NCBI GenBank assembly: GCA_963731745.1
Contig: CAVSWT010000032.1
Coordinates: forward strand, 35,369 to 99,368
Direction of reading: 5' to 3'
Source: an uncultured Ignavibacteriales bacterium
GTDB lineage: Bacteria > Bacteroidota > Ignavibacteria > Ignavibacteriales > Ignavibacteriaceae
DNA length: 64,000 nt
Shown: positions 5,976 to 64,000 of the stretch, in pieces
Position numbering within the stretch: position 1 is the first letter of the stretch
Layout: the number at the start of each line of letters is the position of its first letter
Translations under genes and position numbers: made by a program
The notes under the pieces: model-generated
What the model was told of the DNA's origin: nothing
What the model saw: only the letters and a program-made list of their open reading frames with translations
Databases searched by the model: none

Positions 5976-7370
5976 ATGAAAAAAACATCCATCTTAGTTG
6001 TAGATGATGAAGAAAATTATTTAATGATTTTAAAAGAATTATTGCATGAAGAAGGATACGATGAAGTAATCACTGAAAATAGATCAAGAAATGTATTATC
6101 AATTTTAAAGAATAACGATATTGATCTTATTTTATGTGATATAAATATGCCTGAAATGGATGGCTTAGAACTGCTTGAAGAGGTGTCACAGTCCTTTCCC
6201 AAGATTCCAATGATTATGATAACAGGAATGGATGATGTGGAAACAGCTTTAAAAGCCATTAAACTGGGAGCTTATTATTACATCACAAAACCACCGGATA
6301 CTGATAAATTATTTCTTACTATTAAAAGAGCTTTAGAACAGAGATTGCTTGAACTTGAAAGAGATTCGCTTAGATCTTCGTCGATAAATTCAGATAACAA
6401 AAAATTAATTTTTCAAGATATTATTACTGATTCACCTGTGATGTTTAAAGTTTTTGAACTTGTAGAAATTTTTGCTCCTACAAATGAGACTGTTTTAATT
6501 ATGGGTGAAACCGGAACCGGCAAAGATTTGATAGCAAATAAAATTCATGAACTTTCACCCAGAAAGGACAAACAATTTGTTGTTGTAAATTTAGCCTCAA
6601 TAAGCTCTTCTCTATTTGAAAGTGAATTGTTTGGCCATAAAAAAGGCTCATTTACAGGGGCCTTAAATGAAAAAATTGGTTATTTCGAAGAAGCAAATGG
6701 AGGAACTATTTTTTTAGATGAAATAGGAGAGCTTCCTTTCGAATTACAAGGTAAATTATTGAGAGCAATACAATACAGTGAGATATACAGAATTGGAAAC
6801 CCTAAGCCAATTAAATTAGATATTCGAATAATCGCTGCTACTAACAGGGACCTCGCTGAAGATGTAAATAATAAAAAATTTAGAGCGGATCTATATTACA
6901 GGCTAAATAGAGGATTTATAAAATTACCACCACTTAGAAAAAGAGGTGACGATGTTATACTTCTAGCGAAATTTTTCTTAGAAATTGGAAATACCACATA
7001 CTCTAAAAATATACCGGGCTTTACCGATACATTATTAAATTCACTCAAAAAATATAGCTATCCGGGCAATGTTCGAGAACTTGAAAATCTCATTCTAAAT
7101 TCAGTTGCAAAAAGTGATGATTTTAAACCTATAGATAAGATAAACTTTGATTCCAATAATTTGAAAATTAATCTTAATGAAGCAGATGCAGATGAATTTC
7201 AAACCGGTGAAATTAATTTATTATCAATAGAAGATGCGGTAAAAAAGCATATTAAAAATATAATGAAATATGCAGATGGAAATGTTCAAAAAGCTGCTGT
7301 GATTTTAGGTGTAAGTGAACGAACATTGCAAAGAAGATTACAACAAATGAGAAATGAGTCTACCGCCTAA
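5976..7370 (+). CDS. Sigma-54-dependent response regulator (NtrC/Fis family)
   Basis: Receiver domain (ILVVDDE..LILCDINMPEMDG..ITKP). AAA+ sigma-54 interaction domain (GETGTGKD, ESELFGHKKGSFTGA, TIFLDEIGE, YPGNVRELEN). C-terminal Fis-type HTH (AAVILGVSERTLQRRL). Confidence 0.9.
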   Translation: MKKTSILVVDDEENYLMILKELLHEEGYDEVITENRSRNVLSILKNNDIDLILCDINMPEMDGLELLEEVSQSFPKIPMIMITGMDDVETALKAIKLGAYYYITKPPDTDKLFLTIKRALEQRLLELERDSLRSSSINSDNKKLIFQDIITDSPVMFKVFELVEIFAPTNETVLIMGETGTGKDLIANKIHELSPRKDKQFVVVNLASISSSLFESELFGHKKGSFTGALNEKIGYFEEANGGTIFLDEIGELPFELQGKLLRAIQYSEIYRIGNPKPIKLDIRIIAATNRDLAEDVNNKKFRADLYYRLNRGFIKLPPLRKRGDDVILLAKFFLEIGNTTYSKNIPGFTDTLLNSLKKYSYPGNVRELENLILNSVAKSDDFKPIDKINFDSNNLKINLNEADADEFQTGEINLLSIEDAVKKHIKNIMKYADGNVQKAAVILGVSERTLQRRLQQMRNESTA

Positions 7371-14373: not shown

Positions 14374-16713
14374 TTATTTTAGAAGTAACATTTTTTTAAC
14401 GGTGCTATATGATTCTGAACCATCTGTTGGATTAGCGAGCAATGAATAAAAATAAATTCCAGAAGCCAAATTACTTCCATCCCATTTAAATTGATGAGTC
14501 CCTTTTACTTGAGCATTAAGATTGAAACTATTAATTACCTGTCCCAAAACGTTAAAAATTGTAATCTTAACTCTGCTTTCTTTTAATAACGAAAATGAAA
14601 TCATTGTTGTAGGATTAAATGGATTGGGATAATTTTGAAACAATTCAAAATGATTTATAGTCTTCTCATTTTTTTTGATTCCTGTAATCACTGTTTGTTG
14701 ATCACCGGTTCTTTGATTGTTTCCTAAATAAGTTGGCCATTCTAAATTGATAGTTGAAGTCTTTTCATCAGTAGTATTTGATATAATTTTCATGACATAG
14801 ACAGATCCGTAAGTAGTACTGGCAAGCAATAAATTATTTTTTGTTACCAAAGTCGGAGCTGATACGGGACCGTCTGTTTTCAAATACCATTTTACAGAAC
14901 CCTCAGTACTGAATGCAAAAATATATCCGGCATCATTCCCAACAAATATTGAAGAGCCATCTGGTGAAATTGAAGCTGTGCTTTTTATTGATGCCTTGGT
15001 ATTATACTTCCAAATTAAATCTCCAGTCTTAGAGATTGAATAAAAATATCCATCACTTGAACCAATAAAAATTTGACCATTCTCACCAATTATCGGCGCT
15101 GAATAAACTCCACCGTTCGTATCAAATTTCCATAGGAATTCGCCATCTTCATTTAATTTATAAATTGTCCCATCTTTCGATCCAATTACAACATTATGAT
15201 CCGTACCAATAGCAGGAGAAGCTACTATTTCATCTGAAGTCAAATATTTCCAAAGTGAATCGCCATCAACTGAAACACAGTAAATCCTTTTATCTTTACT
15301 TCCAAAGTATACCCTGCCATTATTGCTAATAACCGGCGACGCCACCAACTCATCACCTGTCTGAAAACTCCATTTAATTTTACCATCATAGGTTAATGCA
15401 AAGAGTCTTCCAGTAGTTAATCCAACTAGAATTTCATTGTTTTTATAAAATGTAGGGGAAGATACAACAACACCGCCCATTGCTATATCCCAGTTAGGCT
15501 CACCATGACTATTAAATGAATATAATCTGGTATCTGAAGAAGTAACAAATATATTGTTTCCATCACTTACGGTTACTGTGGACTGAATATCTCCTCCGGT
15601 TAAAAAAGTCCACTTAATATTTCCTAAAGAATCGAATTGATAAACTCTATCATCAGCTGAACTAATAAAAAAAGTATTTTCATCTAATTCACTTATTGCA
15701 GAATATATTGGTCCCTTTGTATAAAGTTTTGCTGCGTAAACTGAGATTAAACTAGAGTCAGTGCTAACAGCGCCAGAATCATTTCTAACAGTCAAAGTAA
15801 GATATTGACTACCAGTTGGCAGACTAACTGTTGGGTTAATTCCACTAGCCAAAGTATCTAGTCCAACAGACCAAGTATAAGATAAATTTTCACCAGTGCT
15901 TAAGCTAGCATCAACTTGATTGGTTGCAATTCCAGAAAATGAATCATCTATCCAAACACTCTGAGCATTTATAATTGCATGAACTGTATTATTTGGAAAC
16001 CATTCGGCTCCATATATAATCCCGTTATTTCCATTACCACTAATATCGTGGATAATGTTTCCTTCGCCTTCAGTCATTGGCCAATACGCAACTAAACCCT
16101 GTTCATTTTGCGGGAAAAGAGTTTTATTCATTTTTTCCTGAATTTCTGCTTGACTTAATGCCCTATTCCAAAGTTGGAAGTCCTCTAAGTATCCAAAAAA
16201 GGTAAATGGATTAGACCAAGGATAAGTCCCAATCAATAGGCTATTATTATCTGGTTTAATATATCCAGTTGCAGTTAAAGCACTTTCTAAATTTCCATTT
16301 ATATAAAGTTTAAAGTTGCTATCTGGAAGATTACTTTCGTAAGTGAGCGCAATATGATACCATTTATTGATTTCTATACTGCTTTGAGAGTATATATGAG
16401 TATAATCATCTAAAAATAATGTCCCTCTAATTTTATTATCCTCAGTTGTTTTTATTCCATAATAGTTTTGCCAAACGTCACCGCGCCATAAAACAGTCTG
16501 GCCTCCTATCTCTTTTGTTTTCATCCAAATTTGAATTGTAATCGAAGTTTCGGGTGTGAATAAAATACTATTTTTGCAATCGACTCTACTATCTATACCA
16601 TTAAAAAAGAGACAAGTTTTTGAAGGCTGTGCAAAAGATGATACGCTCAATAAAAAATTTGTAATAAGAATTATTATAAAGCTAATTAAAGGTTTGCTCC
16701 CATTTGCTTTCAT
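14374..16713 (-). CDS. Secreted LamG/ConA-like lectin domain plus Ig-like domain plus PQQ-type beta-propeller repeats, with a T9SS C-terminal sorting domain
   Basis: Signal peptide. N-terminal LamG-like region (LFFNGIDSRVDC...FKLYINGNL..LSQAEI). Repeated G.I.W.F/Y...G.I.SSP/SAP blades (PQQ/BamB-like). C-terminus FELFQNYPNPFNPTTMISFSL...SGIYFYSL matches a T9SS CTD. The ATG at 16713 is preferred over the TTG at 16746. Confidence 0.75.
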   Translation of the reverse strand: MKANGSKPLISFIIILITNFLLSVSSFAQPSKTCLFFNGIDSRVDCKNSILFTPETSITIQIWMKTKEIGGQTVLWRGDVWQNYYGIKTTEDNKIRGTLFLDDYTHIYSQSSIEINKWYHIALTYESNLPDSNFKLYINGNLESALTATGYIKPDNNSLLIGTYPWSNPFTFFGYLEDFQLWNRALSQAEIQEKMNKTLFPQNEQGLVAYWPMTEGEGNIIHDISGNGNNGIIYGAEWFPNNTVHAIINAQSVWIDDSFSGIATNQVDASLSTGENLSYTWSVGLDTLASGINPTVSLPTGSQYLTLTVRNDSGAVSTDSSLISVYAAKLYTKGPIYSAISELDENTFFISSADDRVYQFDSLGNIKWTFLTGGDIQSTVTVSDGNNIFVTSSDTRLYSFNSHGEPNWDIAMGGVVVSSPTFYKNNEILVGLTTGRLFALTYDGKIKWSFQTGDELVASPVISNNGRVYFGSKDKRIYCVSVDGDSLWKYLTSDEIVASPAIGTDHNVVIGSKDGTIYKLNEDGEFLWKFDTNGGVYSAPIIGENGQIFIGSSDGYFYSISKTGDLIWKYNTKASIKSTASISPDGSSIFVGNDAGYIFAFSTEGSVKWYLKTDGPVSAPTLVTKNNLLLASTTYGSVYVMKIISNTTDEKTSTINLEWPTYLGNNQRTGDQQTVITGIKKNEKTINHFELFQNYPNPFNPTTMISFSLLKESRVKITIFNVLGQVINSFNLNAQVKGTHQFKWDGSNLASGIYFYSLLANPTDGSESYSTVKKMLLLK

Positions 16714-16780
16714 TTTAGCCCCTAAAATTTTATTGAACAACAACAATTTAATTCATTTAGTAATTTACAGCAAGAAAAAT

Positions 16781-18058
16781 TTATTTATTTATTTTAGAAT
16801 TACTTAGCGCAATGTTGTAAAGATCCAAATAACTTTCACCAATAATTTCCGGAGAGTTATTTTTTATTATATTATTTCTAGCGTTCGTAGATAAATCATT
16901 CCACTTTCCCTTATTATCAATCATCCATTTAATGCCGGTCATCAGAAGCTCAGAGTTCTTAGATTCAACTAAGTATCCATTCGTTAAATGATTTATCATA
17001 TCTGGCATTCCACCAATATTAAAAGCAATAACTGGTAATCCACAAGCAAGCGATTCCATAACCGTATTTGGATAATTATCTTCTAGTGAAGAAGAAACAA
17101 AAAAATCTGCAGCATTGTAAAATGCAACCATTTTTGCATCTGATTCTATTCTTCCGCAAAAATTAAATTTAATAGGAATTCCGGATTGCATTGATTCATC
17201 TGCACGCCCAAATACAACGATTTCAGACATATCTTTATACTCAGGATGATTAGAAATTAGTTTAATTATACTTTCCTTAAAATATTTAAATCCTTTCCGT
17301 TCGTCTTTAATGTTCATTGAACCAAAAAGGATTAACAGTTTATCTAATGGTAAATTTAATCTATTTCTTGATTCAGTTTTATCCAATTGTTTAAATAGAC
17401 TTAAATCTATTGAATAAGGAATTACATTAATATTTAAATCATTAAATAATGCACTATTTTTTGCACAATTTTTAAGCCAGTGGCTTGGGGAAACGATATT
17501 TAACTTTAATTTATCAAATATGCGTTTTTTACTTTTCCAAATTTTAAAGGAGTTATCATTAGGAGAAGAATTTTTCAAGTATGGACAACAATTACATTGG
17601 GTTATATATCTTTTACAATCATTTGCGTAATGGCATCCGCCAGTAAATGGCCACATATCATGAAGCGTCCAAAATATTGGTTTATTCAACACACTCAATT
17701 GTTCTATACTTTTTAAGGATAAAAAGCCTTCATTTATCCAATGGAAATGAAGTAAATCTGCATCTTCAATTAAATTATAACTGGATATGTCAATTCCTAC
17801 CTTTCCAAAAGAGAACCTTCCCAATTTCGTATTAGTGAATAAATACATCGGCAGTAAATCATAATAAATTCTTCTATTCGTTAAAGCATTTGAAAGCCAA
17901 GAATCAGAAATACCAAAAACATTTTTATCTAACCCAAATTTTCTCTGAACAAGCATCTTAGCTTCCACATCTACAGTATCTAATGATTTAAATATCCCAT
18001 ACCCAGCCCGGGCAGCTCCGCCTCTAATATCCGTATGGCTAACATGCACAACTTTCAT
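16781..18058 (-). CDS. Glycosyltransferase family 4-like
   Basis: 425 aa. MKVVHVSHTDIRGGAARA at the N-terminus and a GT-B C-terminal motif SSLEDNYPNTVMESLACGLPVIAFNIGGMPDMI. Confidence 0.8.
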   Translation of the reverse strand: MKVVHVSHTDIRGGAARAGYGIFKSLDTVDVEAKMLVQRKFGLDKNVFGISDSWLSNALTNRRIYYDLLPMYLFTNTKLGRFSFGKVGIDISSYNLIEDADLLHFHWINEGFLSLKSIEQLSVLNKPIFWTLHDMWPFTGGCHYANDCKRYITQCNCCPYLKNSSPNDNSFKIWKSKKRIFDKLKLNIVSPSHWLKNCAKNSALFNDLNINVIPYSIDLSLFKQLDKTESRNRLNLPLDKLLILFGSMNIKDERKGFKYFKESIIKLISNHPEYKDMSEIVVFGRADESMQSGIPIKFNFCGRIESDAKMVAFYNAADFFVSSSLEDNYPNTVMESLACGLPVIAFNIGGMPDMINHLTNGYLVESKNSELLMTGIKWMIDNKGKWNDLSTNARNNIIKNNSPEIIGESYLDLYNIALSNSKINK

Positions 18059-18780
18059 AAAACTTTTTTTGTAAATATTATATTATCGTTATAAAGATTT
18101 TTATTATTCGGTAAAATTGCGGAAACAATCAAACCGATGATTGTAAAAGGTGAAATAAAAATAAAATTAATTAACAAATTTAAATACTTATTTTTTGTAT
18201 ATAATTTATAAAAGAGGTATAGATTCCAAAACTGAAAAACTGTTTCGAGAAATTTTGTGCTTTTTTCTATTTCAATTACTTTGAATCCATTTTTTTCTAA
18301 TAGATATTTTATACCGAAACTTGAGTATCTTCCAAAATCAAAAGGCTGCTCATGTTCGTCCCAGGCAAATGGAACAGCAAACAATGCATTACCACCTTTT
18401 TTCATTACTCTATTTATTTCTGTTAAAATTTTTTCTAATTCAAAAATGTGCTCAAAAACTTCACTGCTAAAAACTGAATCAAATGATTCATCTTTAAAAG
18501 GTAAAATTTTACCATCATAGTAAATGTCTATTTCTTCCTTTTCATGCGGATGTCCGTGATCAATTACATCAACGCCTATATATTTTTCAACATCAAATAA
18601 ATTTTTATACGGCTTTGAACCACTGCCAAAATCCAGCAAAGTTCCGCTTAACCTATTCGAAAATTTATTTATTCCTTTGAACAATCCTCTTCTTATAAAG
18701 AAGAAAGGATTAATAAAAACACCTATGAATCCAGGATTAAAAGTTTGCTTTATATATATGGAGAGAAATTTATTTAACAA
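18055..18780 (-). CDS. Class I SAM-dependent methyltransferase (copy 1)
   Basis: Motif I LLDFGSGSKPY and SSEVFEHI (Methyltransf_11-like). Its stop overlaps the start of the downstream GT gene (ATGA). Confidence 0.8.
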   Translation of the reverse strand: MLNKFLSIYIKQTFNPGFIGVFINPFFFIRRGLFKGINKFSNRLSGTLLDFGSGSKPYKNLFDVEKYIGVDVIDHGHPHEKEEIDIYYDGKILPFKDESFDSVFSSEVFEHIFELEKILTEINRVMKKGGNALFAVPFAWDEHEQPFDFGRYSSFGIKYLLEKNGFKVIEIEKSTKFLETVFQFWNLYLFYKLYTKNKYLNLLINFIFISPFTIIGLIVSAILPNNKNLYNDNIIFTKKVL

Positions 18781-19449: not shown

Positions 19450-20268
19450 CTATATTATATTGTAGAAATTTAATTGTCTGTTTCTTATTGCGAACAGTTC
19501 GTCCATATTTAAAAAGAAGACGTACAAATTCTCTATAATATTTAATAAAACTTTTTTTGTAAATATTATATTATCGTTATAAAGATTTTTATTATTCGGT
19601 AAAATTGCGGAAACAATCAAACCGATGATTGTAAAAGGTGAAATAAAAATAAAATTAATTAACAAATTTAAATACTTATTTTTTGTATATAATTTATAAA
19701 AGAGGTATAGATTCCAAAACTGAAAAACTGTTTCGAGAAATTTTGTGCTTTTTTCTATTTCAATTACTTTGAATCCATTTTTTTCTAATAGATATTTTAT
19801 ACCGAAACTTGAGTATCTTCCAAAATCAAAAGGCTGCTCATGTTCGTCCCAGGCAAATGGAACAGCAAACAATGCATTACCACCTTTTTTCATTACTCTA
19901 TTTATTTCTGTTAAAATTTTTTCTAATTCAAAAATGTGCTCAAAAACTTCACTGCTAAAAACTGAATCAAATGATTCATCTTTAAAAGGTAAAATTTTAC
20001 CATCATAGTAAATGTCTATTTCTTCCTTTTCATGCGGATGTCCGTGATCAATTACATCAACGCCTATATATTTTTCAACATCAAATAAATTTTTATACGG
20101 CTTTGAACCACTGCCAAAATCCAGCAAAGTTCCGCTTAACCTATTCGAAAATTTATTTATTCCTTTGAACAATCCTCTTCTTATAAAGAAGAAAGGATTA
20201 ATAAAAACACCTATGAATCCAGGATTAAAAGTTTGCTTTATATATATGGAGAGAAATTTATTTAACAA
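19450..20268 (-). CDS. Class I SAM-dependent methyltransferase (copy 2) with a 31-aa read-through tail created by the duplication junction
   Basis: The first 241 aa are identical to copy 1. The native TGA is replaced at the junction (19543-19545 reads tta on the coding strand), which adds LNIIENLYVFFLNMDELFAIRNRQLNFYNII. Confidence 0.7.
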   Translation of the reverse strand: MLNKFLSIYIKQTFNPGFIGVFINPFFFIRRGLFKGINKFSNRLSGTLLDFGSGSKPYKNLFDVEKYIGVDVIDHGHPHEKEEIDIYYDGKILPFKDESFDSVFSSEVFEHIFELEKILTEINRVMKKGGNALFAVPFAWDEHEQPFDFGRYSSFGIKYLLEKNGFKVIEIEKSTKFLETVFQFWNLYLFYKLYTKNKYLNLLINFIFISPFTIIGLIVSAILPNNKNLYNDNIIFTKKVLLNIIENLYVFFLNMDELFAIRNRQLNFYNII

Positions 20269-57672: not shown

Positions 57673-57759
57673 GGAGAGTTGGCAGAGTGGTTGAATGCGG
57701 CGGTCTTGAAAACCGTTAAGGATGCAAGTCCTTCCGGGGTTCGAATCCCTGACTCTCCG
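57673..57759 (+). tRNA. tRNA-Ser (anticodon UGA)
   Basis: Cloverleaf folded by hand. Acceptor stem GGAGAGT/ACTCTCC plus discriminator G. Anticodon stem GCGGT/ACCGT with loop CTTGAAA. Long variable arm. T-arm CGGGG-TTCGAAT-CCCTG. Confidence 0.9.
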
Positions 57760-57962
57760 CGACTAAAAAAAGACTCAAAATACAACATGCAAATTGTGTT
57801 TTTGAGCCTTTTTCGTATAGTCTCGTCTCTCAGATACACTCAAATACCCCCTTTTAAAACTAGGTTTGGAGACTTTTTGGAGACCTTTTTAATATCGTAC
57901 TTTTATATATTATGACAATTATAAACTGACTAGGTAAAAAATCTTTTATTTAATATTTACTA

Positions 57963-59045
57963 TTATGGAAGTAAATTCTTTAAGCTACTTACCTCTTGAT
58001 GAAGCAGTTCAGCCTTGTGGTGAGCATATATTTCAGTTTGAACAACAGACCAGTGTCCTAATAATTCTTTAACAGAATGAATAGGAACTCCATTCTGCAC
58101 GAGCATTGATGCAAAAGTATGTCTGAACTTATGCAGGTAGGCGTTCGTATTTATACCTGCTGCTTTTGCAACTTTTTTACAAACTGTAAGCAGATTTCTT
58201 TCTCGCAATTTTTTTCCAGATGGTGAACAAAATGGAAATTCAAATGCATTCGGTTTTTTATGTTCTTCAAGCAATAATTCATAAAGCAGATTATGCATTG
58301 GTATATTTCTTTCAGAATTAAATGATTTGGTCTTAAAATTTTCACTTGATCGTATATGGATCAATCGATTTTTGAAATCAATGTCATCCCAGGTTAAATT
58401 AGCCAATTCCCCAAACCTTGCGCCGGTAAACAATAATCCTAGAAACGCTTTTCTATAAGCCGAGTTCATCTGCTGCTGAAAAAATAATTTAATCTCTTCT
58501 GGAGAATAATAATCGGGTTTTTTCTTATCCACCTTTAAGTTTTTGATATGCATCATTGGACTTTGTTTGATATGTCCTTTAATAACTTCCTGATTAAATA
58601 CTGCCTTAACAGTTTGAATAAAGAAATTGATGGTTTTTGGTTTAGGCATTGCCATTTTTGAATTGTTTTTACCTCGTTCTGGTTTTTCACGAACAAGTTC
58701 ATTATAAAGCTTTGTAGCATGATCTGGGGTGAACTCATCAACATAAGTTACATTAAATACTTTTGCAACTAATTTCATTTGAGTTATAACATATTTATTT
58801 TTTTTAATTGAGGCAGGACGCAAATGTATTTTACTTGCAAGAAAATCATCAAGCGCTTGATTCATTGGATATCTTGCGGTTAACAGTTTTGCTGAAATTA
58901 GTTTCTCATCATATTTGGATTTTTCATTAGCACCATCGAATGCCTTTGCTTCAGCTTTAGTTCGAAATGTTTTTTGAATCCTGTTCCCATATTTATCTCG
59001 GGTGTCTACTTGGAATTTTCCGTTGGGTTTAGTTTTAATTGCCAT
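57963..59045 (-). CDS. Tyrosine recombinase / phage-type integrase
   Basis: N-terminal SAM-like core-binding domain. Catalytic residues in context: GARFGEL (Arg), HKFRHTFAS (H-x-x-R) and LLGHWSVVQTEIYAH (His..Tyr). Confidence 0.9.
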   Translation of the reverse strand: MAIKTKPNGKFQVDTRDKYGNRIQKTFRTKAEAKAFDGANEKSKYDEKLISAKLLTARYPMNQALDDFLASKIHLRPASIKKNKYVITQMKLVAKVFNVTYVDEFTPDHATKLYNELVREKPERGKNNSKMAMPKPKTINFFIQTVKAVFNQEVIKGHIKQSPMMHIKNLKVDKKKPDYYSPEEIKLFFQQQMNSAYRKAFLGLLFTGARFGELANLTWDDIDFKNRLIHIRSSENFKTKSFNSERNIPMHNLLYELLLEEHKKPNAFEFPFCSPSGKKLRERNLLTVCKKVAKAAGINTNAYLHKFRHTFASMLVQNGVPIHSVKELLGHWSVVQTEIYAHHKAELLHQEVSSLKNLLP

Positions 59046-59372
59046 TTAGGTTACTCCTTCTATTGTTAATCTTGCAATTTCTGTTAAATGAATTTTTGGT
59101 TTGTCTCCCAAATTGATTGTTCTAATTGATCCGGATTTTATTCGGCGACGAATGAACTCCTCCCCTACTCCAAGTATTTTTGCTGTTTCATTTGCCGTAA
59201 ATAATATTTTATCAGGGTGGTTATGAACCAGTATTTGAATGGTAGTCTTTAAATTCTCAGCATCGTTAACATTAGACAAATTTTCATTTGCCGGACAAAT
59301 AATTTGAGTCCCGTCCTTTGCAAGTAAAGTTTTTGTAGAACTTAAATGCGATATTTCTATTAACGATGCCAT
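59046..59372 (-). CDS. Excisionase-like / MerR-type HTH DNA-binding protein
   Basis: LFTANETAKILGVGEEFIRRRIKSGSIRTINLG is an HTH_17-like pattern. Its stop abuts the integrase start. Confidence 0.55.
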   Translation of the reverse strand: MASLIEISHLSSTKTLLAKDGTQIICPANENLSNVNDAENLKTTIQILVHNHPDKILFTANETAKILGVGEEFIRRRIKSGSIRTINLGDKPKIHLTEIARLTIEGVT

Positions 59373-59403: not shown

Positions 59404-59436
59404 AAATAAAAGCCGCTGAACTTTCAGCGGCATTTT
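59404..59436 (-). terminator. Rho-independent terminator
   Basis: On the minus strand it reads aaaatGCCGCTGAAagTTCAGCGGCttttatttt. It lies 25 nt downstream of the 59461 stop and separates the orphan-gene operon from xis-int. Confidence 0.65.
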
Positions 59437-59460: not shown

Positions 59461-60090
59461 TTAATCTTCGTCATTACTATCTTGAATGGTATTTTCATCC
59501 TCAATGCTATCCTCCAAGTTTTCATCAACTTCAGGATCGGCATTTCTAGTATTAGAATCATTAAAATATTTGTCATCTTCGTACTCAATTAGATGTAAAA
59601 TTTTAACTGCTAAAGGAGTTAACATTTCATAAATTCTAAGAACCACTTGTACAAATGTAAATTCTTCAACTTCAAATTTGTAATAATAATTAGTATCAAA
59701 ATAAAATTTGTATTCACCATTCTTTATAAAAGATAAATTGAGTAAATCCGCCATTCCTTTACTTTGTTTATAGACAAAGTTTCTGCTTTTATATAAACTG
59801 TTGATTATACCGTAGTTATCATTATGATCATAAATAGTATACAAAAATTCTACTTCATACTTTTTATTACCTTTAAATTTTACCTTCACATTAAATCTTT
59901 TTGGAACTTCTTGTGGTCCAATTGGCAATTCAAATTCAATTGTCTCATTAACATTCATTTTATAGGCAACTACTTTTAAGGTTGCTTCTGCGATTTCATC
60001 CTTTTTGAATGTACTGACTTCAGGATTTGTGGTGTCGCCATCGTCTGTTTGAGAATTATTTGTTACTTCTTTGTTTAATATATTTTCCAT
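59461..60090 (-). CDS. Hypothetical protein with acidic disordered termini
   Basis: 209 aa. Beta-rich core flanked by a D/E/T-rich N-terminus and a C-terminus reading DPEVDENLEDSIEDENTIQDSNDED. I recognise no motif. Confidence 0.5.
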   Translation of the reverse strand: MENILNKEVTNNSQTDDGDTTNPEVSTFKKDEIAEATLKVVAYKMNVNETIEFELPIGPQEVPKRFNVKVKFKGNKKYEVEFLYTIYDHNDNYGIINSLYKSRNFVYKQSKGMADLLNLSFIKNGEYKFYFDTNYYYKFEVEEFTFVQVVLRIYEMLTPLAVKILHLIEYEDDKYFNDSNTRNADPEVDENLEDSIEDENTIQDSNDED

Positions 60091-60144: not shown

Positions 60145-60810
60145 TTATTTATTTTTCTCCCAGCCAAAAGTTTCTCTGATTGATCTGTAGATCTGAGTTT
60201 TCACTTGCGGATATTTATTCAATAATGAATAAGTATCTTTAAGCTCGTTTCTTAGGATCACATTCAACTGACTATTAAAGTCTTTCCCATTAATCATTGC
60301 GACGTCCTTTAACATTGCAATGCGATGATCTTTTTTCTCTTTCAACTTTCCCAGCTTAGCTAGTATATCTTTTTGGAATCCTTCAGCATTCTTCTTTATT
60401 TCTCTCTTTAAAGCAATTTGAGAATTGATAGTTTTCATTCTCCCCTTAGCAGCCCGTGAATTAGTTGTACATGCGCTGCTATACTTTTTACCCCAACTAT
60501 TCAACGCAAGTTTAGTTTTCTTTTGTTGAAGTTTGGTTAGAGTAAGCTTAGCTTTAAATGCTTTGACTTCGGGGCTTGTAAGATTTTTGATGGTAGGATC
60601 TTCTCCTTCCTTTTCGGAAGGAATTTCGATTTGTTTAGAGCTAATGATTTTCTCCAAAACTATTATTGAATCAGAGAGTTCATAATTTTGATTGAGATGG
60701 TATGAATAACTCTTCTCAATTCCATTGAATCTTTTAGGAGATAATGTTCTGTAATTATTATTATCTCCTTTCGGATCAGCTAACTTTATTTTTGGCATCT
60801 TTGCCTCCAA
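60145..60810 (-). CDS. Hypothetical lysine-rich helical protein
   Basis: 221 aa with a strong GGAGG RBS. Central K-rich helices. I recognise no motif. Confidence 0.5.
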   Translation of the reverse strand: MEAKMPKIKLADPKGDNNNYRTLSPKRFNGIEKSYSYHLNQNYELSDSIIVLEKIISSKQIEIPSEKEGEDPTIKNLTSPEVKAFKAKLTLTKLQQKKTKLALNSWGKKYSSACTTNSRAAKGRMKTINSQIALKREIKKNAEGFQKDILAKLGKLKEKKDHRIAMLKDVAMINGKDFNSQLNVILRNELKDTYSLLNKYPQVKTQIYRSIRETFGWEKNK

Positions 60811-60865: not shown

Positions 60866-60882
60866 GGCAATAGATATACCGC
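60866..60882 (-). promoter_or_regulatory. Candidate sigma-54 (-24/-12) promoter
   Basis: The minus strand reads tgcGGTATatctaTTGCc. GG (60880-60879) and GC (60868-60867) sit at exact consensus spacing. It lies about 57 nt upstream of the ATG at 60810. Confidence 0.4.
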
Positions 60883-60929: not shown

Positions 60930-60957
60930 ACTTGAAGTATTTCAAGTAAACTTGAAG
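60930..60957. promoter_or_regulatory. Candidate enhancer: inverted repeat plus a third half-site
   Basis: ACTTGAA-gtat-TTCAAGT occupies 60930-60947, followed by aa-ACTTGAAG (60950-60957). It lies about 50-75 bp upstream of the -24 element and just after the stop of the EBP gene. Confidence 0.35.
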
Positions 60958-60979
60958 ATGTTAGAGTTGGCGCAAATTA

Positions 60980-62866
60980 TCAGAGGTTTAATTTCTTTTT
61001 GATCTCTCCATATTTATTATAAGCTTTGTTAAGTTTTGATTTACTGAACTGTGTTCCGTCCATGCCAACAATAACCGATGCCGATTCTTTTTTTAGAGTT
61101 TTGTTCCAATGCATATTGAAGTCATCTAAGTATAATTTCGCGATTATTGGTTCAACAAAATTATCAAGAAATTTTCCGTCTTTATCCGGCGACCAGTTAT
61201 TTAAAAATAATAGTAGTAATTCATTTAATCTTTCAAAATCTTCTTCATGATATATCGGCGTGTTCTCAATTGGTTCCTTTTTAATTTGCTCAACTTTAAT
61301 TCTAGTTTGATTTTCCGACAGACAATTAAAATATAAAATTTTCAAATACTGATTTAGCTGTCTAATATTCCCCGGCCAGTTTAGAGATTGCAAGTATTCT
61401 ACAGCGACCTCATCAATAGTGATATATCGATCTCTCTTTCGATTCAATTCCGACAGAAAAGAGTCAATCATTATTCTTATGTCTTCTGATCTTTCACGCA
61501 GTGCCGGAATCTTTATTATTCTTCCCGTGATTCTATAATAAAGATCGTCTTCAAATTCCCCCTCTTTAAATAGTTTTTTTAAATCCTTATTTGAACCAAA
61601 AATAAGCCTTACATTAGCTTGAGTTGATTTGCCTTCACCTAAAACTTCAAATTTCTTTGTACCTATAAAAGTAATTAATCCATCACGCGTTTCCTTAGTT
61701 GTTCTGTCAATCTCATCAAGAAATAAAGTACCTCCTTCAGCTCGTTTTATTTTCCCGTCATAATCTTTTATTGCTCCAGTGAAAGCTCCTTTTTTCCAGC
61801 CGAATAATTTTTGATCTAGTTTATCACTGGACAAATTACCACAATTTTGTTCTTCATAATTTTTATTATGTCGATCGCTTTCATTATGAATTATATTAGC
61901 CAACCATGATTTTCCAACACCGGTTTCACCTAAAAGCAAAATAGGAATATCGTCTTCATTTATTACTGAAAGAACGGAGCGCAATTGTTGCTTATAATTA
62001 TTATCGTTTGTTAATACTTTCTTACTTAATGATTCTAACTGCTCATCGATGGTTTTTGTTGGACTCAAAATTTTTTCTTCTGGTTGATTTAATCTGATAA
62101 CTGTCTTTTCGAATAAATTTTGTTCTTGAATGGTATCGAATAAAAATGAAAATAAAGGTTTTAGTTCTGAAGTATTATATATTGAAATCCAATATATTAG
62201 CTGGGAGACAATTAAATAAAAATAGATTTTTAATTGTTCAGTATTATTTGAATCAGTGAGAATAATTTTAAATAAATTGTTTTTACTTTCTTGTTCATAA
62301 ATAGTTATCACTACCTTTCTCAATGCAACCAACAATTTATCTATCTTATTTTCATTACCTTCGGAATTATCAAAGATAATATATATTGGTGTATCGTTAT
62401 CCTTTATACCTTGGAAAAAATTTCCCGGTGGGAAATTCTTAAACATGTTAGCATTAATTCCCTCATCTTTCAAAATATTAGGAATGGTTGTTGAATTTAT
62501 TAAGTAAATGAATGATTGAAAATTGTTCGTATCTTTATTGTTGATTATACTGATTTGTTCAAAAGCTTTAATAAAACTTTCATCTAATTTTTTTTTACCT
62601 TCTTTCAGATTTATTTTAACTTGTGTGGATTGCTCATTGTCCCCACTCGATGTAAATGACCTTAAATTATCTGCCTTAAATTCTTTGTCATTGTTGACCG
62701 TTTCAAATATTGAATCAAGCGCTTTGTTTTTGAGCTGGTTTAATTCATCAAAAACTTGTCTTTCCTCAATTGACGATATATTGAATGACTTCTTTAATTC
62801 AGTTTCAACCTCTTGAATTAGATCAAAATATCTACCTTCAGATAGTAGTTTTTGAATTTTTTCCAT
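60980..62866 (-). CDS. Sigma-54 enhancer-binding-protein-type AAA+ ATPase with an uncharacterised ~300-aa N-terminal domain
   Basis: Walker A LLGETGVGKS, intact sigma-54 contact loop FGWKKGAFTGA, Walker B TLFLDEID, LYYRI and WPGNIRQL. The C-terminal end SKSKLNKAYNKYGEI looks like a degenerate Fis-type HTH. There is no receiver, PAS or GAF pattern in residues 1-300. Confidence 0.8.
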   Translation of the reverse strand: MEKIQKLLSEGRYFDLIQEVETELKKSFNISSIEERQVFDELNQLKNKALDSIFETVNNDKEFKADNLRSFTSSGDNEQSTQVKINLKEGKKKLDESFIKAFEQISIINNKDTNNFQSFIYLINSTTIPNILKDEGINANMFKNFPPGNFFQGIKDNDTPIYIIFDNSEGNENKIDKLLVALRKVVITIYEQESKNNLFKIILTDSNNTEQLKIYFYLIVSQLIYWISIYNTSELKPLFSFLFDTIQEQNLFEKTVIRLNQPEEKILSPTKTIDEQLESLSKKVLTNDNNYKQQLRSVLSVINEDDIPILLLGETGVGKSWLANIIHNESDRHNKNYEEQNCGNLSSDKLDQKLFGWKKGAFTGAIKDYDGKIKRAEGGTLFLDEIDRTTKETRDGLITFIGTKKFEVLGEGKSTQANVRLIFGSNKDLKKLFKEGEFEDDLYYRITGRIIKIPALRERSEDIRIMIDSFLSELNRKRDRYITIDEVAVEYLQSLNWPGNIRQLNQYLKILYFNCLSENQTRIKVEQIKKEPIENTPIYHEEDFERLNELLLLFLNNWSPDKDGKFLDNFVEPIIAKLYLDDFNMHWNKTLKKESASVIVGMDGTQFSKSKLNKAYNKYGEIKKKLNL

Positions 62867-63117
62867 ATAAGTCTATGTGTTTTAGTTAATAAATTGGTTA
62901 ACAGCTTTGAAGATTCATTGAATTTTTGCAAGGGTGCTTAAATATTGATATAAAAGTTTAATTTTATTTGTAAAAATTCTCAAAAATAAAATAAGGTATA
63001 CGAATTAATTAGTCGATTATCATAGAAAACTGATAAAAAAATCTCAATTAATTAAGTAGAATTACACAATTAATCATTTTTTATTTTATTCAACTATTGT
63101 TAAAGCTTTATTTTTCA

Positions 63118-64000
63118 TTAAGTTATAAGCAAATCTCTTTCAATTAGCATAAAGCTAGCCCAATAAAAAGGATTAGGGTACATTTGCTTAAGAATTAATT
63201 GTGCTTCTCTAAATGACTCAAATTTATTATCATTGATTAACCATTTAGAATAAAATTCTGTTATAAATTCTTTAGAAATTTTGTCATCAATTTCCCACAG
63301 ACTGATAATAATAGATTTTGCTCCAGCCTTGTAAAAAGCTCTTTGTAAACTTAAATAATCTCCAGATTCTAGTTCAAAACCTAAACCCGATTGACATACA
63401 CTTAATACCACCAGTTCGCAACTTTGCAGATTCATACTTCTAATTTCGTCGGGTGTTACAACTCCATTAAAATTGATATATTCTTTTCCGTCGATGTCCA
63501 CAGAACATCCGGACAGTAATATTCCAGACATTGTATATGAATCATCTATCTTTTCAATTTGTTTTAAATTGGGTAAGAAATATCCATGCGTTGCTACATG
63601 CAAAATTGTAGGAGAATTAACATCCATAAAATTATTTTTTGAAGCATCATCGTGGATATATAATTGCACTTTCCAATTATGTCCGTTCAATAATGAAGCG
63701 ACTTCATTTACTTCATTCTTGCTTTCGGGTAATGGTTTGATTTCATAATCATTTAATTCATATACAGAATTGTATTCATTTGGAATTTTATATCCACTTT
63801 CTAAACTAACTGCTCTGTAGGCTGGGGATCCAAATAAACATGCAGTTTTTTCTAAATTATTATTTGGGATAATTCTCATGTTTATCAAATTGTTTGTATA
63901 TCTGATTTTTTTATTTAATATTAAATACTCGCCACCAGAAGACAATAATGAATCGAAATTTATAAATCTTAATGCTCCATCTGAAGATAAAAAGATTTCA
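63118..64000 (-). CDS. CHAT-domain (caspase-like) protease, C-terminal part; N-terminus lies outside the window
   Basis: The His/Cys dyad is in context: ILHVATHGYF and LVVLSVCQSGLG. By hand translation the frame stays open upstream of the track's TTG at 63945 through to position 64000 (..EIFLSSDGALRFINFDSLLSSGGEY..). Confidence 0.8.
   Translation of the reverse strand, partial: EIFLSSDGALRFINFDSLLSSGGEYLILNKKIRYTNNLINMRIIPNNNLEKTACLFGSPAYRAVSLESGYKIPNEYNSVYELNDYEIKPLPESKNEVNEVASLLNGHNWKVQLYIHDDASKNNFMDVNSPTILHVATHGYFLPNLKQIEKIDDSYTMSGILLSGCSVDIDGKEYINFNGVVTPDEIRSMNLQSCELVVLSVCQSGLGFELESGDYLSLQRAFYKAGAKSIIISLWEIDDKISKEFITEFYSKWLINDNKFESFREAQLILKQMYPNPFYWASFMLIERDLLIT

Follow-up and report, generated by a model that had tools for sequence, protein, structure and literature searches.

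What signal might a sigma-54 enhancer-binding protein (EBP) read, and which genes might it turn on, when it is carried on an integrative island next to a protease gene? EBPs are a textbook family of signal-integrating regulators, the sensor domains of which define what sigma-54 regulons respond to. Here this question is raised by a gene located in a 64,000-nucleotide stretch of DNA from an uncultured Ignavibacteriales bacterium (GenBank assembly GCA_963731745.1, contig CAVSWT010000032.1, positions 35,369 to 99,368; hereafter the window). The gene, at 60980..62866 on the minus strand, encodes a protein of 628 amino acids (aa), which we refer to simply as the EBP. The answer that we favor, with a probability of about 0.6, is that this protein is a functional sigma-54 activator of a rare family, that it forms a cassette with an enhancer, a promoter and two downstream genes, orfA and orfB, and that it would receive its input from a co-encoded protease in those loci that contain a CHAT gene.

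The AAA+ core of the activator

The reading frame is complete, with a stop codon, and has at least 14 full-length homologs at 36-45% identity. Its central part, residues 288-536 (61259..62005, minus strand), is an AAA+ sigma-54 interaction domain with its lid: Pfam assigns residues 288-447 to Sigma54_activat (E = 3.7e-46; 157.3 bits against a cut-off of 20.2) and residues 457-536 to AAA_lid_14, and the catalytic columns are invariant in the family alignment. A preliminary description of this DNA had listed the motifs GETGVGKS, GAFTGA, DEID and WPGNIRQL in the central domain, and all of these are indeed found in the translation, as the Walker A motif (GETGVGKS, residues 313-320), the GAFTGA loop (residues 360-365, nucleotides 61772-61789), the Walker B motif (LFLDEID, residues 381-387) and sensor II (WPGNIRQL, residues 497-504). 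The residues of the arginine fingers and sensor II (R445, R459, N500 and R502) do not vary among 23 family sequences, and GSFTGA occurs as a further variant of the GAFTGA loop within the family. The matches in NCBIfam, PADLOC and PHROGs are restricted to the AAA+ part, and residues 1-270 and 537-628 match no family in Pfam, NCBIfam or PHROG. Judged from these motifs, the open reading frame (ORF) at 60980..62866 is a real sigma-54 EBP with an intact core.

Does the host possess the sigma factor that such a protein would act upon? A chromosomal, NtrC-type EBP is encoded at 5976-7370 (plus strand), with Response_reg, Sigma54_activat and HTH_8 domains and a GSFTGA loop; this canonical REC-AAA-HTH_8 protein is an indirect sign that the host uses sigma-54. 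The literature that we searched yielded nothing on rpoN in Ignavibacteria.

A rare family, mostly from Ignavibacteriota

A search of 5.8 billion proteins recovered about 14 full-length relatives of 600-645 aa, at the identities given above, which make up subgroup 1 of the family; the proteins of subgroup 2 have a C-terminus like that of subgroup 1 and an N-terminus that looks different. The profile of the N-terminal 285 residues of the EBP matched only 81 proteins among 1.84 billion cluster representatives, and the full-length matches are mostly about 620 aa long. On these counts, the N-terminal domain appears to be rare and to occur essentially only in the EBP architecture of this family. Certain parts of the N-terminus exist in other architectures as well, given that profile positions 117-183 match six repeated stretches in a protein of 1524 aa (P0174) and that the 60-residue helical module described below matches, on its own, the N-terminal ends of several proteins that are about 420-606 aa long (P0182, P0186, P0187 and P0191).

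The named family members, all of them annotated generically, come from metagenome-assembled genomes (MAGs) of Ignavibacteria, Ignavibacteriales and Ignavibacteriaceae, along with one KSB1 MAG and one MAG labeled 'Clostridiales', and the cassette is found mostly in Ignavibacteriota. In searches for related loci, the single EBP protein as the query retrieved none among genome contigs or viral contigs, and the alignment of full-length EBPs gave results dominated by generic EBPs; the alignment of the C-terminal domain, run against metagenomes, added two short loci. Phage and plasmid collections contain no full-length relatives, only matches to the AAA+ domain. The latter are numerous, an EBP-like AAA+ match being present in 2,638 plasmid records, so that location on a mobile element is not, by itself, unusual for EBPs, and the premise of the preliminary description that EBPs are normally chromosomal is a weak one.

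A conserved candidate enhancer and promoter next to the gene

Immediately 3' of the EBP gene, starting 12 nt past its stop codon in the window and 12-37 nt past it across loci, lies a 38-bp palindromic element (60930..60967, no strand assigned), a candidate enhancer or upstream activating sequence that consists of two 18-bp ACTTGAA-N4-TTCAAGT units placed 20 bp apart. The perfect 18-bp palindrome occurs in the window only at 60930-60947, and the unit at 60950-60967 is a copy with two mismatches. We compared this region in eight loci, namely the window and seven independent loci of subgroup 1 (L001, L002, L004, L005, L006, L091 and L093). The 38-bp element, with the consensus ACTTGnnnnnCTTCAAGTAAACTTGAAGTAnnnCAAGT, is in register in all eight; in a scripted scan with mononucleotide shuffles as the control, which was applied to the promoter as well, the palindromes of the first six loci yielded a combined P of at most 3e-14. 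Each of 10 family loci contains the inner core of the enhancer, TCARGKNNAYYTGAA, exactly once, and 83 other loci, amounting to about 1.3 Mb, do not contain it at all. The bases ACT, TCA, TGAA and CAAGT are invariant between loci, even though the proteins are 36-57% identical and the flanking sequences do not align, which argues for sequence-specific recognition.

Downstream of the enhancer, at a distance of 48 bp and 67 nt upstream of the ATG codon of orfA, the window contains a candidate sigma-54 promoter, cGGtatatctaTTGCc (-24 GG / -12 GC; 60866..60881, minus strand). The other loci have their own -24/-12 elements, such as TGGCTCactgtTTGCA and TGGCATcaggcTTGCC, the gap between enhancer and promoter being 48-52 bp in 8 of 8 loci and the promoter preceding the next start codon by 45-67 nt; the shuffle test gives a combined P of 1.2e-6 for six loci. 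The enhancer sites are accordingly centered at roughly -84 and -104, which is classical EBP enhancer geometry, and the same layout recurs in the subgroup 2 locus L007, where CTTGAA/TTCAAG palindromes are followed by TGGCACactgtATGCA (TGGCAC-N5-ATGCA). Taken together, the -24/-12 element and the enhancer make up a candidate regulated promoter that faces orfA and orfB. Upstream of the EBP gene itself, neither a sigma-54 element nor a copy of the enhancer was found.

Could the palindromes have no role beyond that of an intrinsic terminator for the EBP gene? In that case the protein would act from solution or on a distant promoter, with no sequence-specific DNA binding, in the manner of those EBPs that naturally lack a DNA-binding domain. 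This reading can point to the symmetry of the 38-bp element, which as a whole forms a single inverted repeat with 12-18 of 19 pairs symmetric, to the T-run that follows the palindrome in five of the eight loci, to the element of L005, which was flagged as terminator-like, and to a C-terminal domain without a recognizable helix-turn-helix (HTH). However, what is conserved is the base sequence, beyond pairing alone; the T-run is missing from three of the eight loci; the -24/-12 element always follows at 48-52 bp; and the C-terminal domain is strongly conserved. We regard an exclusive role as a terminator as quite improbable, and the 38-bp element may serve as the terminator of the EBP gene in addition to being an enhancer.

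The C-terminal domain

A C-terminal Fis-type HTH (HTH_8) is common among EBPs, if not universal. In the EBP, the Pfam search detected no HTH_8, and the preliminary description took the C-terminal DNA-binding region to be degenerate. This view does not survive comparison within the family: residues 537-628 (60983..61258, minus strand) are conserved in both subgroups, with W558, P573 and G601 invariant in the alignment; AlphaFold2 models the region as a five-helix bundle at a mean predicted local distance difference test score (pLDDT) of 92.5; and a palindromic enhancer sits next to the gene. The model and the alignment point to a family-specific domain, presumed to bind DNA, and not to a decayed HTH.

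The same observations bear on the possibility that the EBP is a decaying, non-functional regulator, a remnant with a degenerate C-terminus and no working target. Such a reading could invoke the missing HTH_8 and the short Logan contig L010, in which the EBP reading frame is split in two. Against it stand the intact frame of 628 aa, the conservation of the cis elements, the invariance of the catalytic motifs at 36-45% identity and the full length, about 620 aa, of every member; we consider it barely credible. As for L010 itself (3-1069), its orfA is identical to that of the window and its EBP frame was called as two pieces of 176 and 163 aa; this could be either a frameshifted allele or a sequencing error.

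The N-terminal region

What, then, would control the AAA+ core? In the preliminary description, the N-terminal half of the protein was considered unrecognized. The part of that claim concerning known sensors holds, given that no receiver, PAS, GAF, V4R or PRD family is detectable, but the region does not seem to be a wholly new fold. We modeled residues 1-285 with AlphaFold2 on the basis of 22 sequences (pLDDT 77; predicted template modeling score 0.71). In this model, three helices (residues 2-59) lead into a disordered segment (61-96), after which come an alpha/beta domain (97-260) and a linker helix. The three-helix module, residues 1-59 (62690..62866, minus strand), is conserved in both subgroups and is the best-conserved part of the N-terminus, with short matches covering residues 1-60 alone; its helices (2-9, 13-24 and 33-59) are modeled with a pLDDT of about 90, compared with less than 50 for the linker, residues 61-96.

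For residues 97-260 (62087..62578, minus strand), a Foldseek search of the PDB returned, at the top, macroH2A1.1, the second macro domain of PARP14, YmdB, MacroD1 and the macro-like N-domain of M17 aminopeptidases (E from 7.6e-5 to 6e-4; template modeling scores of 0.5-0.64, normalized by target), and the fold matches in BFVD are the macro domains of alphavirus nsP3 and ADP-ribose hydrolases. The fold search, which the preliminary description had proposed to run against CARF among other folds, thus returned Macro domains and not CARF. CARF had been considered for a further reason, namely that the match of the PADLOC model RtcR_PspF2 to the EBP appeared to extend into the N-terminal region; the matches of this model in 10 other members start at profile position 139 or later, that is, they cover only the AAA+ part and the linker.

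At the level of sequence the similarity is uneven. The subgroup 2 profile weakly matches PDB sequences of the second macro domain of PARP9 and of macroH2A1.1 (E 0.01-0.085), with strand and loop motifs aligned, and the N-termini of the two subgroups match each other with an HH probability of 96.9% (E = 2e-10). The subgroup 1 profile, by contrast, found no macro domain among PDB sequences, and the Pfam Macro family (PF01661) does not match the EBP at E<=0.1. The positions that canonically contact ADP-ribose are not conserved in subgroup 1, where only G148 is nearly invariant and the Asn and Gly-rich loop positions of Macro are not kept, whereas subgroup 2 has the invariant motifs D-A-x-V, SAPxSYHI and FFPL. 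Residues 97-260 thus appear, in the model, to adopt a degenerate Macro-like fold, and subgroup 2 would be a better candidate for nucleotide binding than subgroup 1.

This fold brings up the alternative of a direct small-molecule sensor, in which the Macro-like domain would bind ADP-ribose or a nucleotide related to it, such as one produced by an NADase or an ADP-ribosyltransferase in the course of infection. Binding would free the AAA+ domain in the way known from other EBPs with ligand-binding sensors, and the CHAT gene would be incidental. Besides the fold itself, the alignment of the invariant subgroup 2 motifs with the binding-site strands and loops of the PARP9 macro domain and the presence of SIR2 or TIR genes on some of the islands would fit this scenario. 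The near absence of invariant residues in the Macro-like domain of subgroup 1, with the loss of the Asn and Gly-rich loop positions and the lack of a Pfam Macro match, speaks against it, as does the fact that NAD-related cargo is not consistently present; on balance, we find it unlikely.

A linker motif that co-varies with a CHAT protease

The linker and the gene that precedes the EBP suggest a different kind of input, proteolysis. Directly upstream of the EBP gene, on the same strand, the window contains the 3' part of a TPR-CHAT protease gene (63118..64000, minus strand; Pfam CHAT, E = 3.6e-41) that runs off the window; its catalytic His (in HVATHGY) and Cys (in LSVCQSG) are intact. The same arrangement, with a gap of 33-282 bp, is found in L002, L004, L006 and L093. 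In the four loci compared, the TPR-CHAT proteins are orthologous over their full length, that of the window being 43.5% identical to the protein of L004, 34% to that of L002 and 30% to that of L006, and these identities mirror those of the EBPs; the TPR and CHAT genes of L093 fall outside the alignment. These parallels indicate that, as far as the sequences go, TPR-CHAT is a partner that co-evolves with the EBP and not a chance neighbor. Within the 251-bp spacer between the CHAT and EBP genes of the window, the sequence TATTTTTG at 62983-62990 (minus strand) fits, by eye, the Bacteroidota-type TAnnTTTG -7 motif.

The linker of the EBP is unconserved except for one short motif, [LMVFY]-R-S-[FTSV], which in the window is L68-R69-S70-F71 (62654..62665, minus strand) and which is a candidate site of recognition or cleavage by the neighboring TPR-CHAT. 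All five EBPs that have a CHAT neighbor carry this motif, and the three that have none (L001, L005 and L091) lack it; in L005, the gene upstream of the EBP encodes a DEAD/ResIII helicase. In a neighbor-joining tree, each of the motif-less EBPs is placed next to a motif-bearing one, which suggests several independent losses. Furthermore, in the 68% identical pair P0003/P0010 the N-terminal helices are conserved and only the linker has diverged, which argues against a simple replacement of the 5' end of the gene. The co-variation of the motif with CHAT, as would be expected of a protease that recognized or cut the linker, suggests a protease-gated EBP.

The putative output genes

The promoter faces orfA (60145..60798, minus strand), the conserved first gene of the downstream unit, which encodes a very basic protein of 217 aa (isoelectric point, pI, 9.9). 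Homologs of orfA are found in the window, L001, L002, L004, L005 and L091/L092, with a pI of about 10 throughout; orfA co-occurs with the EBP, diverges in step with it and has only 4 matches among 5.8 billion proteins. The orphan second gene, orfB (59461..60090, minus strand), encodes an acidic protein of 209 aa (pI 4.5), and an acidic protein of about 200-310 aa (pI 4.2-5.1) follows orfA in 5 of 5 loci examined, sequence similarity between these proteins being mostly lost. Neither orfA nor orfB has a match in Pfam, PHROG, PADLOC, NCBIfam or the PDB, profile searches of the PDB and Pfam giving noise. The two could be an effector pair or an element that controls the life cycle of the island.

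The orfA-orfB unit is closed, ahead of the gene for an excisionase-like protein, by a hairpin resembling an intrinsic terminator, GCCGCTGAAAGTTCAGCGGC followed by TTTTATTTT (59412..59431, minus strand). Equivalent terminators are found after orfB in L002 and after orfA in L006; between orfA and the end of the integrase gene, none was found in L001, L004 or L005. Read-through into xis-int seems possible in some of the islands, not in general.

The island setting

On its left the island is bounded by its integration target, tRNA-Ser(tga) (57673..57760, plus strand; ARAGORN), followed by a tyrosine integrase gene (57963..59045, minus strand; Pfam Phage_integrase, E = 9.4e-30), the product of which shares 52-56% identity with its counterparts in L001 and L006, and by the excisionase-like HTH_17 gene (59046..59372, minus strand; Pfam HTH_17, PHROG excisionase), which is kept beside int in the related loci. 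The location of the EBP on an integrative element beside a CHAT protease, as pointed out in the preliminary description, is confirmed by these genes. On the other side, the island extends past the end of the window at 64000. The related islands abut tRNA-Ser(gga), tRNA-Lys and tRNA-Thr, and wherever the available DNA suffices the gene order is the same, with variable cargo, EBP, orfA with 0-3 small ORFs, HTH_17, integrase and tRNA, even though the integrases are of two types that are only 21-25% identical. The EBP cassette is a constant, integrase-proximal module of tRNA-integrated islands. In a survey of the neighborhoods of the homologs, as proposed at the outset, the gene was always island-borne and linked to orfA, with CHAT directly upstream in five of the eight loci.

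The cargo differs from island to island: type I HsdR (restriction-modification), a YgjP-like protein and RhuM in L002 (1-4384); SNF2, an N6_N4 methylase, DUF8370/8371, Abi_C and ResIII in L001 (1-9474); SIR2_2 and DUF87 in L006 (1-3271); ThsB_TIR, Nmad2 and thymidylate synthase/HMUDK_hel in L093 (832-4179). As judged from these family assignments, defense-type genes predominate among what the related islands carry. The EBPs of subgroup 2 are also located on integrase/HTH_17 elements, one of which (L007) encodes a BT4734-like/DnaB_C primase-helicase. A gene of about 265 aa precedes subgroup 2 EBPs in L007 (5571-6368, where it overlaps the EBP start codon by 4 nt) and in L009 (7824-8630); the two proteins are 37% identical and match no family, and the gene may be the counterpart of TPR-CHAT in subgroup 2.

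The constancy of this arrangement lends itself to another explanation, namely that the EBP is a life-cycle regulator of the island, a master activator of excision or transfer, with a sigma-54 transcript that would run through orfA into xis-int. The cassette always adjoins xis-int and is co-oriented with it, regardless of which integrase type or tRNA target a locus has; in L001, L004 and L005, the stretch from orfA to int yielded no terminator; the genes just before xis are only 16-22 bp apart in L001, L002 and L005; and the subgroup 2 relatives reside on elements with primase-helicase genes. The strong intrinsic terminator that separates orfA and orfB from xis-int in the window, L002 and L006 is difficult to reconcile with such a transcript, and orfA and orfB show no similarity to known recombination directionality or replication proteins. 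We consider this scenario possible, though doubtful.

The rest of the window is an ordinary chromosome, with zwf/gnd/pgl, aconitase, SufB and a protein sorted by the type IX secretion system (T9SS). The latter (14374-16746, minus strand), a large protein of the beta-propeller/Laminin_G kind that ends up in T9SS sorting by virtue of its Por_Secre_tail domain, fits a host from the FCB group (Ignavibacteriota/Bacteroidota). Elsewhere in the window, 18053-18352 and 19541-19840 form a direct repeat that is 100% identical, with a spacing of 1488 bp and matching 16-mers extending to about 19505/20993; a gene pair of about 1.5 kb seems to be tandemly duplicated, unless the assembly has collapsed or expanded there.

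A possible mechanism and the objections to it

How could these components work together? By analogy with what is generally known of EBPs, the N-terminal region would hold the ATPase off until a signal arrives, the C-terminal domain would bind the palindromes, and the EBP would assemble into a ring that uses ATP to open the sigma-54 promoter of orfA. In the window and four other loci, the co-variation suggests that the signal would be delivered by the co-encoded TPR-CHAT, which would recognize, and probably cut, the [LMVFY]-R-S motif in the linker; the EBP would then switch on the basic orfA and the acidic orfB. One may go a step further and envisage a self-contained, CRISPR-independent switch in which the TPR arm senses an insult, most plausibly phage infection, CHAT cuts the linker, and the AAA+ ring fires the promoter of an effector pair or triggers the escape of the island; we offer this extended version tentatively, at rather less than even odds.

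Several observations weigh against the scenario of a protease-fed sigma-54 activator and its cassette. A search for rpoN found no RpoN box in the 1.44 Mb of DNA examined. Several members of the family have a relaxed version of the GAFTGA loop (GSFTDA; GTATDV in P0024), and the -24/-12 element of the window is among the weakest, with 7 of 12 consensus positions and a single-locus P of 0.07. The T-run past the palindrome in five of the eight loci belongs here as well, as does the fact that the C-terminal domain matches no HTH or other DNA-binding fold in searches of Pfam, PDB sequences and PDB folds. The link to CHAT comes from 8 loci only, in one of which (L091) the assignment 'no CHAT' is based on 432 bp of upstream DNA without CHAT coding sequence, and the existence of L001 and L005, which have no CHAT, means that CHAT cannot be the only input.

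Comparison with known systems

Among the closest known systems is RtcR, a CARF-AAA+-HTH sigma-54 activator of the rtcBA RNA-repair operon, the sensor domain of which is controlled in part by protein partners (PMC9650030). The AAA+ domain of the EBP scores best against RtcR-type models (NCBIfam RtcR, 219 bits; PADLOC RtcR_PspF2, 233 bits), and the two proteins have in common an N-terminal regulatory domain that is Rossmann-like alpha/beta, not a receiver, and a gene that adjoins the operon under its control. However, the NCBIfam score of 219 bits is far below the RtcR cut-off of 650, the protein has a Macro-like N-terminus and not CARF, its C-terminus is of a type other than HTH_8, and its gene, carried on an island, has the orphans orfA and orfB as neighbors in place of rtcA and rtcB.

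The nearest precedent for the protease part of the scenario is the type III-E system, in which the TPR-CHAT protease Csx29 cuts a loop in Csx30 and so releases a response driven by a sigma factor (PMC10028731). In both this system (Cas7-11/Csx29/Csx30/CASP-sigma) and the cassette, a caspase-like TPR-CHAT protease is encoded beside a protein that controls transcription, and the conserved short motif in the disordered linker of the EBP, which co-varies with the presence of the protease, would correspond to the cut in a flexible loop. The differences are substantial: none of the genes called in the related loci is a cas gene (no search for CRISPR arrays was made), the CHAT protein of the window scores 21 bits against a Csx29 cut-off of 300, and the putative substrate is a sigma-54 AAA+ activator instead of an inhibitor of an ECF-type (extracytoplasmic function) sigma factor.

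With the classical EBPs (NtrC1/DctD, NorR, XylR/DmpR, PspF with PspA; reviewed in PMC7175178), the protein shares the AAA+ core with its GAFTGA loop, the modular N-terminal control domain and a -24/-12 promoter preceded, at roughly 80-110 bp, by tandem activator sites. It differs from them in its sensor, where a helical module and a linker come before a Macro-like fold; in its putative DNA-binding domain, which belongs to no described type; in its enhancer, which directly follows the 3' end of the gene that encodes the activator itself; and in its regulon, which seems to comprise a single pair of orphan genes located on a mobile island. As to the Macro domains themselves (macroH2A1.1, PARP9/14 macro, YmdB, MacroD1 and viral nsP3), the N-terminal domain resembles them in its three-layer alpha/beta fold and in several strand and loop motifs that the subgroup 2 relatives retain; unlike them, it has no Pfam Macro match, and the residues that contact ADP-ribose are not conserved in subgroup 1. 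In the literature that we searched, we found neither a Macro domain fused to a sigma-54 AAA+ domain or EBP nor a link between CHAT and sigma-54 activators. The known part of the protein is therefore the canonical EBP engine, and what appears to be new is the architecture of the sensor (helical module, linker and Macro-like domain) together with the putative DNA-binding domain, to which are added the niche on a mobile island and a plausible new mode of control.

Implications

The enhancer and the promoter can be read from the sequence, which makes the system immediately testable. If excision of the island turned out to be what the EBP controls, this would be an unusual, sigma-54-dependent mobility switch. 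If, on the other hand, the CRISPR-independent switch outlined above exists, it would be the first protease-gated sigma-54 activator and would represent a new class of transcription-based response on defense islands. Under protease gating, the two orphan proteins would be the output of a new response, and the logic of type III CRISPR systems, whereby a protease controls transcription, would extend to sigma-54 and to islands that are free of CRISPR.

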